DNA of 64,000 bases from positions 1,408,001 to 1,472,000 of the forward strand of contig OY970192.1 of the NCBI GenBank assembly GCA_963708135.1. Reading direction: 5' to 3'. Numbering within the stretch: position 1 is the stretch's first letter; each line of letters begins with the position of its first letter. This document shows positions 6,778 through 10,331 of the stretch, one piece after another. The position numbers were made by a program, and so were the translations under genes. The notes below the pieces were generated by a model. The model saw only the letters and a program-made list of their open reading frames with translations. It had not been told where the DNA came from and ran no database searches. This DNA comes from an uncultured Gemmatimonadales bacterium. GTDB lineage: Bacteria > Gemmatimonadota > Gemmatimonadetes > Longimicrobiales > RSA9.

Positions 6778-7706
6778 GCCGCCCCCCCGCCGACCAGCGC
6801 GACGAACGCATCCTCCAGCGTGAGGCGAGCCGCGACCATTCGCCGCAGCGGAAGCCCGGCCGCGGCGACGGCGCGCGGGATCCCGATCTGCGCCGTCTCG
6901 AGGTCCGTGACCCGCACCCGCAGCATGCCCGCCTCCCGGTCCACCTCCCGGACCCAGGGCATGGCCATCAGCGCCGCCTCCAGCGGGGCACCGTCCCCTC
7001 CCACCTCCAGCTCGACCATCGGACCGCCGGTCCGCGCCGCCAGCTCCTCCACGCCTGACTGCGCCACCACCCGACCGCGATCCAGAATCGCCACGCGGTC
7101 ACACACCCGCTCAATGTCGGCCAGGATATGGCTCGAGAAGAAGACCGTCGTCCTGCCGCGCAGAGACGCGATCATCTCGAGGACTTCACGGCGGCCGATC
7201 GGGTCGAGCGCGCTCGTCGGCTCATCCAGCAGCAGCAGCCGCGGCGCATTCACGAGCGCCTGTGCGATCCCGAGCCGCTGCTTCATCCCTCGGGAGAACC
7301 CGCCGATCCGCGTCCCGACCCCGGCGAGCCCCGCCATCTCGAGCAGGACCCCCACGCGTTCCGTGAGGGCCTGCCCCTCCAGCCCGAACAGCCGCCCCGA
7401 CAGCGTCATGAGCTCCCGCGCCGTCATCCACGGGTAGAAGCCCGGAATGTCCGGCAGGAACCCGACCTCCCGCCCCGGCGCCGCTCCGCGCGTCGCGTCC
7501 CGGCCGAGGACGCGCGCCGTCCCCGAGGTCGGGCGGGCGAGCCCCATCAGGATGCGCAGCGTGGTGGTCTTGCCCGCGCCGTTCGGCCCCAGGAACCCGA
7601 ACACCGACCCCTCCGGCACGAACAGTCCCACGCCATCCAGCGCGCGCGTGCCGCCGAACGTCTTGACGAGGCCGGCCGCCTCGATCGCGGCCCGGACCCC
7701 CGTCAC
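6774..7706 (-). CDS. ABC transporter ATP-binding protein (export type)
   Basis: Walker [10 protein letters not shown], signature FSRGMKQ, Walker B LLLDEP, SSH. Confidence 0.96.
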
Positions 7707-8020
7707 CCGCCCTCCTCGCCGCCGTACAGCGCATCGACCGCCCGCCGGGTCCGTTCTCCCCCGCCCGGCTCCGCCTTCGCCTCCGCTCCACCGCCTGGCG
7801 CCGGGCTACCTCGCCCCGCGGCGAAGTAGATGAGCGGTCCAACCAAGTTCAGCAGCACGATCACCGCCACCCAGAACCCCTTGCTCACCGGCACCCGCCC
7901 CCGTCGCGCCAGGTCCACGAGCGCCCACGCCTGGAGCATCACCTGGACCACCGCGAGAACCGTCAGCGCCACGAGCGCCCCCGTCGAGAGCCCCGCCACC
8001 ACGTCCATGAACCTCTGCAC
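7703..8020 (-). CDS. Small membrane protein with PLDc_N (phospholipase D N-terminal-like) domain
   Basis: ALVDL..R...K..WV.VIV.LN.VGP.IYF..GR pattern; 4-nt overlap with the ATPase start. Confidence 0.8.
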   Translation of the reverse strand: MQRFMDVVAGLSTGALVALTVLAVVQVMLQAWALVDLARRGRVPVSKGFWVAVIVLLNLVGPLIYFAAGRGSPAPGGGAEAKAEPGGGERTRRAVDALYGGEEGG

Positions 8021-8054
8021 CGCGTGTCCTCCGGGAAGGGAAGTGTGGCTGCCG

Positions 8055-8085
8055 AATATTTAGGCAATCGTCTAAATATTGTCAA
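8055..8085 (-). promoter_or_regulatory. Operator palindrome overlapping the promoter of the PLDc_N-ABC operon
   Basis: AATATTTAG-N8-CTAAATATT (8055-8080), an AT-rich island in GC-rich DNA; minus-strand TTGACA at 8085-8080, then 17 nt and TAAATA. Confidence 0.75.
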
Positions 8086-8125
8086 CGGGACGCGCTGGAG
8101 CCGGGGGGACAACGGACGGGGCGGC

Positions 8126-8155
8126 TTGACCGTTCCGCGGCCCGCGGGGTATACT
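8126..8155 (+). promoter_or_regulatory. Sigma70 promoter of the thrS leader
   Basis: TTGACC-N18-TATACT. Confidence 0.8.
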
Positions 8156-8184
8156 TCTTCCGACGGTCAACCGGAGCGAACGGC

Positions 8185-8265
8185 ATGCGCGCGAAGCGGA
8201 TTCGGACCACCACGACGACGACGCGGCCCCCCTCGGGAGGCGGCGGTGCGGGGTGCGTCGAATAG
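8185..8265 (+). CDS. Thr-rich leader peptide of thrS (MRAKRIRTTTTTTRPPSGGGGAGCVE)
   Basis: GGAG RBS 8173-8176, ATG 8185, Thr codons ACC ACC ACG ACG ACG ACG (8206-8223), TAG 8263-8265; precedes a terminator and thrS. Confidence 0.88.
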   Translation: MRAKRIRTTTTTTRPPSGGGGAGCVE

Positions 8266-8285
8266 ACGCGAGCTCCGACGATCCG

Positions 8286-8321
8286 ACGCGGCCTCTCGAG
8301 AGCGGGGGGCCGCGTTTTTTT
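8286..8321 (+). terminator. Attenuator terminator in the thrS leader
   Basis: 13-bp stem ACGCGGCCTCTCG/CGGGGGGCCGCGT (two G-U), AGAG loop, T7 run 8315-8321. Confidence 0.9.
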
Positions 8322-8402
8322 ATGGCAGCGGCCGCGGCGGTGCGCCGGTTGCGGGCACTGCGGCGTCGCCTAAGTTGAGCGCACCCTGAACGGTACCGGA
8401 AC

Positions 8403-10331
8403 ATGGCGAACGACGACAGGATCAGAGTCACCCTCCCGGATGGGTCGGTGAAGGAGATGCCGGCGGGCTCGACCGCGCGCGATGTGGCGGAATCGATCGG
8501 CCCGGGGCTGGCCAGGGCGGCGCTGGCGGCGCGGGTGGATGGAGGGGTGGTGGACCTGTCGCGGCCGCTCGAGGGGGACGTGTCGCTCGAGATCATCACC
8601 CCGAAGAGCCCGGGCGCGCTGGACGTGCTCCGGCATTCGGCGGCGCACGTGCTGGCGACCGCCGTCCGGCAGGTGCGGCCGGACGCGCAGATCGGCTTCG
8701 GCCCGGCGATCGAGAACGGCTTCTACTACGACTTCGATGTGGACCACCCCTTCACGCCGGAGGAGCTGGAGGAGATCGAGCGGCACATGGCGCAGGTGGC
8801 GGACGCGGACGATCCCTTCGAGCGGCGGGTCGTGACGGTGGAGGAGGCGCGCGAGCTGTTCGCGGATGACCCGCTCAAGCTGGAGCGGCTGGCGGACTTC
8901 GACGAGAACGAGGTGATCACCGTCTACCGCAACGGCCCGTTCCTCGACCTGTGCCGGGGGCCGCACGTCCCCTCGACCGGGAAGGTGCGGTGCGTGAAGC
9001 TGCTGAACACCGCGGGCGCGTACTGGCGCGGCGACGAGAAGCGGCAGATGCTCCAGCGCATCTATGGCACCGCGTTCTTCAGCGAGCAGGAGCTGAGCGC
9101 GTACCTGCACCAGCTGGAGGAGGCCAGGCGGCGGGACCACCGGAAGGTCGGGCGCGAGCTGGATCTCTTCTTCTTCAGCCCGCTGGCGCCCGGAGCGGCG
9201 TTCTGGACCGGTCGCGGGACCATCCTGTACCACGAGCTGGTGGACTTCATGCGCGGCGTGCTGGCCGGCCGCGGCTACGAGCAGGTGAAGACCCCGCTGC
9301 TCTACAACAAGGCGCTGTGGGAGCAGTCGGGGCACTGGGGCAAGTACCGGGAGAACATGTTCCTGGTCCTGGACAAGGACACGGGCGAGGCGGACGTGTC
9401 GCTCAAGCCGATGAACTGCCCGTCGCATTTCCTGATGTATCTGCGGCACAAGCACAGCTACCGCGAGCTGCCCATCCGCTACGCGACGCAGGACGTGCTG
9501 CACCGCAACGAGGTGACCGGCGCGCTCTCCGGGTTGACACGCGTGCGCCAGTTCCAGCAGGACGACGCGCACATCTTCATCGCCGAGAGCCAGATCGGCG
9601 ATGAGGTCCGGCGCCTCGTCGAGGAAATGCAGCTCGCCTACGGCACCTTCGGACTCGAGTATCGAGTCAAGTTCGGCACCAGGCCCGAGGTGCGCGTGGG
9701 CGACGAGGCGCTCTGGGACCGCGCCGAGAGCGACCTCCAGGCGGCGCTCGACGGCACCGGCGTGCCGTACGAGCTGAACCCGGGCGACGGCGCCTTCTAC
9801 GGCCCGAAGGTCAACTTCCACGTGGCGGACGCGATCGGCCGCACCTGGCAGCTCGGCACCATCCAGCTGGATTACAACAACCCGGAACGCTTCGACCTCA
9901 CCTACGTGGGCGAGGACAACGCCGAGCACCGGCCGGTCGTGATCCACCGCGCCGTTTTCGGGTCCTTCGAGCGCTTCATCGCGATCCTGATCGAGCACTT
10001 CGCCGGGGCGTTCCCGCTGTGGCTCGCGCCCGAACAGGTGCGCGTGCTGCCGATCACCGATGACCTGGCCGCCCCTGCCGGCGAGCTCGCCGCCGCCCTG
10101 CGCGACGCCGGCATCCGCGCGGATGTCGACGCTCGCTCCGAGACCCTCGGCTACCGCATCCGCGAGGCGGAGACCATGAAGGTCCCCTACATGGCCGTCA
10201 TCGGCCAGCGCGAGGCGCAGGCCGGCACCGTGGCCGTGCGGGCGCGCGGCGAGGGCCGGAAGCAGGAAGTGATGGACCGGGAGGCGTTCATCGCACGGCT
10301 GGCGGAGCAGATCTCGGCGCGCAGCCTGTGA
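8403..10331 (+). CDS. thrS: Threonine--tRNA ligase
   Basis: TGS domain, editing HSAAH and DLCRGPH, KPMNCP, RVRQFQQDDAH, GTIQLD, HRA..GS.ERF. Confidence 0.99.
   Translation: MANDDRIRVTLPDGSVKEMPAGSTARDVAESIGPGLARAALAARVDGGVVDLSRPLEGDVSLEIITPKSPGALDVLRHSAAHVLATAVRQVRPDAQIGFGPAIENGFYYDFDVDHPFTPEELEEIERHMAQVADADDPFERRVVTVEEARELFADDPLKLERLADFDENEVITVYRNGPFLDLCRGPHVPSTGKVRCVKLLNTAGAYWRGDEKRQMLQRIYGTAFFSEQELSAYLHQLEEARRRDHRKVGRELDLFFFSPLAPGAAFWTGRGTILYHELVDFMRGVLAGRGYEQVKTPLLYNKALWEQSGHWGKYRENMFLVLDKDTGEADVSLKPMNCPSHFLMYLRHKHSYRELPIRYATQDVLHRNEVTGALSGLTRVRQFQQDDAHIFIAESQIGDEVRRLVEEMQLAYGTFGLEYRVKFGTRPEVRVGDEALWDRAESDLQAALDGTGVPYELNPGDGAFYGPKVNFHVADAIGRTWQLGTIQLDYNNPERFDLTYVGEDNAEHRPVVIHRAVFGSFERFIAILIEHFAGAFPLWLAPEQVRVLPITDDLAAPAGELAAALRDAGIRADVDARSETLGYRIREAETMKVPYMAVIGQREAQAGTVAVRARGEGRKQEVMDREAFIARLAEQISARSL

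Follow-up and report, generated by a model that had tools for sequence, protein, structure and literature searches.

How does a bacterium of a poorly studied phylum adjust the production of its threonyl-tRNA synthetase (ThrRS) to the supply of charged tRNA-Thr? The question is raised by the DNA upstream of thrS in an uncultured Gemmatimonadales bacterium (Gemmatimonadota; Longimicrobiales; RSA9), in a window of 64,000 nucleotides (nt) that is the whole stretch analysed here (positions 1,408,001 to 1,472,000 of contig OY970192.1, assembly GCA_963708135.1; positions below are those of the window). An earlier note on this DNA had read the region between 8126 and 8403 as a ribosome-mediated attenuator of the trpL/thrL/pheM type, in which translation of a short threonine-rich leader peptide decides whether transcription continues into thrS. 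The core of that reading is supported by the recurrence of the leader in relatives, by an enrichment that concerns Thr codons only, by covariation in the terminator, and by a switch of the leader codons to His where a related leader precedes hisG. We conclude that the thrS leader is very probably a classical leader-peptide transcription attenuator, which would couple thrS transcription to the supply of charged tRNA-Thr.

All of the parts that the earlier note had listed, i.e., promoter, ribosome binding site, 26-codon open reading frame (ORF) with six Thr codons, terminator with a run of seven T residues, and thrS starting at 8403, are present where it had placed them (Table 1). The promoter is the sole match within 7700-8700, for which shuffled sequences give an expectation of 0.0, and transcription would start near 8162. 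The terminator ends no upstream gene because the neighbouring gene lies on the minus strand, and the thrS start codon is found 81 nt 3' of the U-tract. The end of the Thr codon run belongs to a segment (segment 1) that nearly duplicates the terminator 5' arm (segment 3), as had been noted before; the direct repeat extends over 8219-8243 and 8284-8308 with 72% identity. Segment 1 has two possible partners, a local one at 8235-8245 and the terminator 3' arm at 8303-8316, and the 12 nt at 8221-8232 are 100% complementary to 8304-8315. A leader ORF, a cluster of cognate codons, a predicted intrinsic terminator and a mutually exclusive predicted antiterminator are all found at this locus, the last of them with moderate support.

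Table 1. Features of the thrS leader and its surroundings, in window coordinates.
Feature	Position	Strand	Details
Sigma-70-like promoter TTGACC-N18-TATACT	8126-8155	+	10/12 matches
Shine-Dalgarno-like GGAG	8173-8176	+	8 nt 5' of leader ATG
Leader ORF	8185-8265	+	26 codons, ATG start, TAG stop, peptide MRAKRIRTTTTTTRPPSGGGGAGCVE
Putative Thr sensor codons	8206-8223	+	ACC ACC ACG ACG ACG ACG, six consecutive
Segment 1	8219-8232	+	overlaps last Thr codons; near-copy of terminator 5' arm
Segment 2a, 5' strand of predicted antiterminator	8233-8241	+	UCGGGAGGC; partner 8291-8299
Local hairpin centred on leader stop codon	8246-8279	+	-18.0 kcal/mol; 8250-8260 paired with 8266-8278
Predicted intrinsic terminator	8285-8321	+	14-pair hairpin 8285-8316, 4-nt loop, T7 at 8315-8321
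thrS, threonyl-tRNA synthetase	8403-10331	+	642 aa, full-length; Pfam TGS, tRNA_SAD, tRNA-synt_2b, HGTP_anticodon
Upstream neighbour, PLDc_N	7703-8020	-	

This combination is rare in the genome, which was searched as one contig of 5.45 Mb with 72% GC. Among 508 sites genome-wide at which a hairpin is followed by four T residues, small ORFs with at least five Thr in eight codons end just before the hairpin at only 2 loci. One is the thrS leader; the other lies inside a Ku gene and was rejected as a false positive of the screen, as was a Trp-containing ORF inside a RAMP gene of the same genome.

To place the leader among its relatives, we collected 102 thrS loci with usable upstream DNA together with 69 metagenome loci; the nearest thrS loci are labelled Longimicrobiales, Longimicrobiaceae and Gemmatimonadota. 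A small ORF with at least four Thr in eight codons was found upstream of thrS in 23 of the 102 loci, and in 19 of these 23 a strict terminator comes next. Three relatives (L009, L012 and L017) carry the homologous hairpin with an imperfect U-tract. Six of the 69 metagenome loci have a Thr-rich small ORF, four of them convincing, and these four include the leader of the closest ThrRS relative (78% identity), with the peptide MRGTTTTTTTRPSPRGAVRVLVR. Thr-rich ORFs at two loci of relatives (L029 and L087) and at L150/L151 were set aside as probably due to chance; these ORFs have no terminator or are located more than 350 nt upstream.

The excess of Thr codons is specific to strand and amino acid. 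In the last 300 nt upstream of thrS in the 102 regions, at least four Thr in eight codons occur on the coding strand in 22, compared with 2 on the reverse complement and a mean of 0.8 in dinucleotide-preserving shuffles, and at least five Thr in eight codons in 17, compared with 1 and 0.0. No amino acid other than Thr was clearly in excess in these regions. The geometry of the leader recurs as well, with the stop codon located 21-34 nt 5' of the terminator arm in 18 of 19 leaders.

Support for the helices was assessed in an alignment of 40 sequences that had been fitted to the terminator only, and was compared with 500 shuffles. The terminator is paired in 90.1% of cells and shows compensatory changes at 10 of its 12 pairs, a value reached by 0 of 500 shuffles. 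The predicted antiterminator, 8233-8241 with 8291-8299, is paired in 74.1% compared with 68.3% in shuffles; again none of the 500 reached the observed value, controls with a slid partner gave 42-62%, and one of its pairs reads AU in 12, GC in 12 and GU in 8 sequences. A comparison that does not use the alignment points in the same direction: the ORF segment that follows the Thr codons binds the terminator arm of its own leader with a mean of -20.3 kcal/mol, permuted partners give -16.1 kcal/mol, and 0 of 10,000 permutations reach the observed mean. The cognate terminator arm ranks first in 6 of 21 leaders, with a median rank of 3. Since relatedness among the sequences inflates such tests, we call the support for the antiterminator moderate. 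In this genome the helix can be extended by pairing of 8220-8232 with 8303-8316.

The same function could also be served by the helices exactly as the earlier note had drawn them, with 8250-8260 (segment 2) pairing either with 8219-8230 (segment 1) or, as antiterminator, with 8284-8295 (segment 3). Such duplexes are possible in silico (-20.9 kcal/mol for 1:2 and -18.6 for 2:3, with -25.2 for 3:4), and 26-36 of 38 sequences retain a four-pair core of the 2:3 helix, (C/U)GCG with CGCG, which could add to 8233-8241:8291-8299 as a nested inner stem. Across 38 distinct leaders, however, the 2:3 helix is paired in 56.0% of cells compared with a shuffled mean of 59.9%, with 500 of 500 shuffles at least as high; double changes are seen at 2 pairs, and 8250-8260 pairs locally with 8266-8278 in every fold of this leader. 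We regard this arrangement as unlikely. An alignment of the thrS upstream regions of relatives, which the earlier note had suggested as a check, bore out its Thr runs and a covarying terminator and left its 2:3 helix without comparative support, the supported pairing being that of 8233-8241 with 8291-8299.

A covariance model (R1) built from 21 leaders was used to follow the element further. In this genome it has one match, the thrS leader, at 97.7 bits, and in the order it matches 62 of 151 sampled genomes (30/50, 8/50 and 23/50 per family). No match was obtained at E < 0.001 in 36 loci labelled Gemmatimonadales or Gemmatimonadaceae, and none in Myxococcota-labelled thrS loci. One match of 37.9 bits in a Gemmatimonadetes metagenome-assembled genome (L037, 991-1127) is found upstream of thrS at a distance of about 340 nt from the start, more than at any other locus; the assigned start may be wrong, or a small gene may intervene.

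Fifty of the matches, namely the 30 best and, of the 21 that follow, 20 (the remaining one belongs to an unpublished genome and was left out), were examined for the gene that they precede. Directly upstream of thrS were 32, all with Thr-containing leaders, two of them weak (3 Thr). A further 11 lie upstream of hisG or hisD, and their leaders are rich in His (e.g., MNAQRITHRHHHHHGPDG); these his leaders are similar enough to be matched by the thrS-leader model. Four precede a homoserine-kinase-like GHMP kinase gene and have Thr/Met/Ile leaders (e.g., MRFCPITTTMTIITRLSRRGGVLAFVR), two precede an aspartokinase-type gene and have Thr-rich leaders, and one is a partial match before a DUF1611 gene, without a leader. 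Because the sensor codons follow the regulated gene on a similar scaffold, these data argue for amino-acid sensing through translation, and we regard the codon swap with the downstream gene as the strongest evidence that ribosomes would read the ORF and that the amino acid would matter. Some of the loci and leaders compared come from unpublished genomes (G016 and G019), namely L005/L212 (one thrS leader), L007 (thrS, no leader) and L224 (a his leader); no conclusion depends on them.

The threonine-pathway leaders of relatives, found at four GHMP kinase loci (L210, L213, L218 and L229) and two aspartokinase-like loci (L223 and L234), share a common tail, ...TRLS(R/T)RGGVLA(F/Y)V. A second, threonine-pathway copy of the leader was not found in this genome at E values up to 0.001. 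Some ThrRS proteins of one family of the order (L209, L214, and L030 and its genus) align with the query from residue 73 onwards only; they have no TGS domain in Pfam, and the Thr leader is still present at these loci.

The same data bear on the possibility that the ORF is not translated, and that the ACN repeats and hairpins are instead read by a protein or a tRNA, through ThrRS autoregulation or a T-box-like contact, or that the terminator acts as a constitutive damper. E. coli ThrRS is known to bind the leader of its own mRNA. A Shine-Dalgarno-like motif precedes 14 of the 38 distinct leaders, and for that reason it is weak as family evidence of translation. What makes this explanation very unlikely is that the enrichment is specific to frame and strand and restricted to Thr, that the Thr codons vary at the third position (ACC 117, ACG 108, ACT 16, ACA 7), that 35 of the 38 leaders start with ATG, that the spacing between stop codon and terminator is maintained, and that the same scaffold carries a His run in 11 of 11 cases before the his genes and Thr/Met/Ile codons before the homoserine-kinase-like gene. 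The Rfam searches also count against it. A T-box (RF00230) was detected neither in 7800-8700 nor in the whole genome, in a search that gave matches in control genomes, and region 7800-8700 matches no Rfam family beyond chance level, the Thr_leader family (RF00506) not being among the 6 weak, chance-level matches obtained there at E values up to 10. The 81 nt between terminator and thrS fold no better than shuffles (z 0.57), and a second regulatory structure in that interval was rejected.

Least probable of all, and in our view highly improbable, is a signal that depends on leader translation without being specific for Thr, such as general translation stress or coupling (e.g., Rho-dependent polarity or pausing at Pro-Pro-Ser, as in drug-sensing leader ORFs): diprolyl motifs slow ribosomes, and this leader peptide has Arg-Pro-Pro-Ser (8224-8235) directly after the Thr run, but Pro-Pro is not conserved in relatives, which show RPSP, RLS, RTTG and others, and the conserved part is the Thr run, which switches with the downstream gene. 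A diprolyl pause at 8224-8235 would place the ribosome exactly over the antiterminator strand.

For attenuation by a Thr-sensing leader peptide, the following course of events can be proposed. Transcription would start at the promoter and a ribosome would begin to translate the leader. When Thr-tRNA is plentiful, the ribosome would pass the Thr codons and 8219-8245, unwinding or covering the antiterminator strand, and with this strand covered as polymerase makes 8285-8321 the terminator would form and most transcripts would stop at the U-tract. Under a shortage of Thr-tRNA, the ribosome would be held on the six Thr codons and would leave 8233-8241 free to pair with 8291-8299 on its emergence; if the stall occurs at early Thr codons, 8220-8232 could also pair with 8303-8316. 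With the antiterminator formed, no terminator would arise and polymerase would read into thrS. Translation of the leader, stalling on the Thr codons, termination at the U-tract and the sign of the response to Thr-tRNA supply are parts of this scheme that we infer from sequence and comparison.

Folding of successively longer transcripts downstream of a ribosome placed at each Thr codon in turn is consistent with this scheme. A stem-loop reaching from 8231-8233 to 8299-8301 enters the minimum free energy (MFE) structure once 8296-8300 has been transcribed, with 8233-8241:8291-8299 as outer helix and the hairpin at 8246-8279 at the tip. With the ribosome edge at 8229 or further upstream, corresponding to stalls up to the fifth Thr codon, no terminator is present even in the full-length MFE structure, and early stalls lengthen the helix to 8220-8232:8303-8316. 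When the edge is at 8232 (sixth Thr codon), the terminator becomes the MFE structure only after 8312, at which point it would need to dislodge a structure of -38.8 kcal/mol. With the A site of the ribosome at codons 13-21, the antiterminator strands are covered and the probability of the terminator is at least 0.9. Among the 21 leaders, the equilibrium probability of the terminator drops to less than 0.5 in 16 when a ribosome occupies the Thr cluster, and it is at least 0.79 in all 21 when the ribosome is at the stop codon and the 5' side is masked.

Several observations count against the attenuator model as proposed, in addition to the scarcity of Shine-Dalgarno-like motifs. In the absence of ribosomes the equilibrium fold of this leader is the antiterminator, with a terminator probability of 0.00, whereas the 20 other leaders give 0.79-1.00; placing one ribosome at the stop codon and leaving the 5' side free keeps the probability in this leader at about 0; and 5 of the 21 leaders favour the terminator at equilibrium for every ribosome position. 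Equilibrium folding was therefore rejected as a full model, failing as it does for these 5 leaders and for the ribosome-free state of this one. Because the equilibrium folds give the antiterminator, termination in the Thr-replete state must here rely on kinetics, i.e., fast local folding of 3:4, or on trailing ribosomes. The local 1:2 hairpin (8222-8245, -16.2 kcal/mol) shows no covariation support, being paired in 58.2% compared with 54.3% in shuffles and no better than slid controls. The genomes compared are related, so that the counts are not independent; several close relatives carry thrS without the leader element, and its distribution is patchy, with 89 of the 151 genomes of the order lacking a model match. 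Finally, the sole RNA run examined yielded only contigs with 90-99% identity to conserved parts of thrS from other organisms, none of them over 8100-8468; the DNA run examined contains the locus.

Thr leaders are also present at the four Thermoanaerobaculia-labelled thrS loci (4/4; e.g., MNRTTTTTPTRTTSRTTSSPCR). The terminator there differs in sequence (GACAGGGCC...GGCCCUGUC), and the last sense codons of the leaders, GCCCUG(U/C)C, are the complement of the terminator 5' arm; GCCCUGUC before the stop codon is complementary to the terminator arm GACAGGGC. The Longimicrobiales model finds one weak match (32.4 bits) in these four loci, and the Thermoanaerobaculia version may be either a very diverged relative or an independent invention. 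A broader picture, which is tentative and to which we give somewhat less than an even chance, is that a single modular Longimicrobiales scaffold has been re-aimed by codon swaps, with Thr codons serving thrS and aspartokinase, Thr/Met/Ile codons serving homoserine kinase and His codons serving the his operon, and that leader attenuation of thrS is a third widespread solution beside T-boxes and ThrRS autoregulation, having arisen separately in Thermoanaerobaculia.

Other leaders of this genome have the same leader-plus-terminator design. A His-rich leader (MSSSGALQHGHHAHHHHGPTG...) with a T7 terminator (L111, G000:C1 5428017-5428121, minus strand) precedes hisG, histidinol dehydrogenase and an aminotransferase, and by its sequence it is a putative his-operon attenuator. 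The gene for a 3-deoxy-D-arabino-heptulosonate-7-phosphate (DAHP) synthase is preceded by a leader rich in Tyr and Phe (MHTQPRFYAYYFSYATHATGRE...), again with a T7 terminator (L114, G000:C1 3917707-3917793, minus strand). Two similar Cys/Met-rich leaders with strong terminators, MCTCMCGSPVGE... and MCACCMCMRGSPVGETGG..., were found at L113 (4417808-4417882) and L112 (5015007-5015084) of G000:C1, both on the minus strand; one of the pair precedes a pyridoxal phosphate (PLP) enzyme of Cys/Met metabolism and the other a RimK-like ATP-grasp protein, which is an unexpected target. The his, aromatic and Cys/Met leaders have other sensor codons and biosynthetic targets, whereas the target of the thrS leader is a translation enzyme.

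Two further sequence features lie close to the leader. The motif GCGGCGGTGCG inside the leader ORF (8240-8250) is repeated exactly at 8334-8344, just 3' of the U-tract, and the terminator 5' side (8275-8296) is 77% complementary to 8327-8348; read-through transcripts could refold through these sequences, but taken as a whole the region 3' of the U-tract folds no better than shuffles. Further upstream, the interval that separates the divergent PLDc_N/ABC-transporter genes from the thrS promoter contains a perfect 9-nt inverted repeat, AATATTTAG-N8-CTAAATATT, at 8055-8080. This repeat is very AT-rich compared with the 72% GC of the genome and looks like an operator for a DNA-binding regulator.

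Classical leader-peptide attenuators are those of trpL, thrL, hisL and pheM. Like E. coli pheM-pheST, the thrS leader places a short ORF rich in cognate codons and an intrinsic terminator before an aminoacyl-tRNA synthetase gene; the two differ in the amino acid (Phe there, Thr here), in phylum and in RNA sequence, which is unrelated, and the alternative helices are predicted here. With E. coli thrL (RF00506) it shares a run of Thr codons as sensor and the terminator/antiterminator logic, and relatives also carry this scaffold in front of aspartokinase-like and homoserine-kinase-like genes. E. coli thrL mixes Thr and Ile codons and serves a biosynthetic operon, whereas this leader has Thr only and a synthetase gene as its target, and it has no match in sequence or structure to RF00506 at E values up to 10. 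Control of thrS itself takes other forms in the best-known systems: E. coli ThrRS binds a translational operator in its own mRNA leader, and in Firmicutes thrS is under a T-box. The aim is shared, being more ThrRS at low tRNA-Thr charging in the case of the T-box and ThrRS homeostasis in the case of the operator. The T-box senses uncharged tRNA directly and the operator binds ThrRS, whereas here the ribosome is the proposed sensor.

A survey by Lopatovskaya and co-workers reportedly deals with attenuation of amino-acid and aminoacyl-tRNA operons, and it may already list thrS cases. The earlier note had not known such a leader to be described for this lineage, and we found no poly-Thr thrS attenuator in the literature for Gemmatimonadota or Acidobacteriota; thrS predictions might be contained in Lopatovskaya et al. 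2010 (Mol Biol 44:128). Outside the lineage, leader-peptide control of synthetase genes has precedents in three reports: PMC1262725 cites pheST as the proteobacterial example and predicts such control for Streptomyces trpS and leuS, PMC2965389 predicts it for hisS paralogues of bacilli, and PMC8079986 proposes leaders in Streptomyces lividans TK24 before alaS, leuS, trpS and, weakly, thrS. The last of these qualifies the novelty of the present case in that a leader peptide, thrL, has been proposed to attenuate thrS. As described in PMC8079986, the S. lividans thrL peptide (MKRVRPFLETTPGFVPAR) has only two Thr, and the one hairpin found there has no U-tract; the leader described here combines a run of six Thr codons with a canonical terminator and is conserved across an order.

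The thrS leader appears to be a new and well-conserved example of the classical leader-peptide attenuators, and this placement is well supported, on a gene and in a lineage where such control is hardly documented. It would represent a third way of controlling thrS, next to autoregulation by E. coli ThrRS and the T-boxes of Firmicutes, and would do so by the longest-known principle of attenuation, in a phylum that has received little study. The occurrence of the same RNA scaffold with Thr, His or Thr/Met/Ile codons, depending on the downstream gene, amounts to a natural experiment, and purely comparative evidence for codon-specific sensing can hardly be much stronger than such codon switching. 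For annotators, the covariance model makes an otherwise unannotated small ORF and its leader accessible. For studies of transcription-translation coupling outside the model phyla, the leader would offer a compact, testable element.

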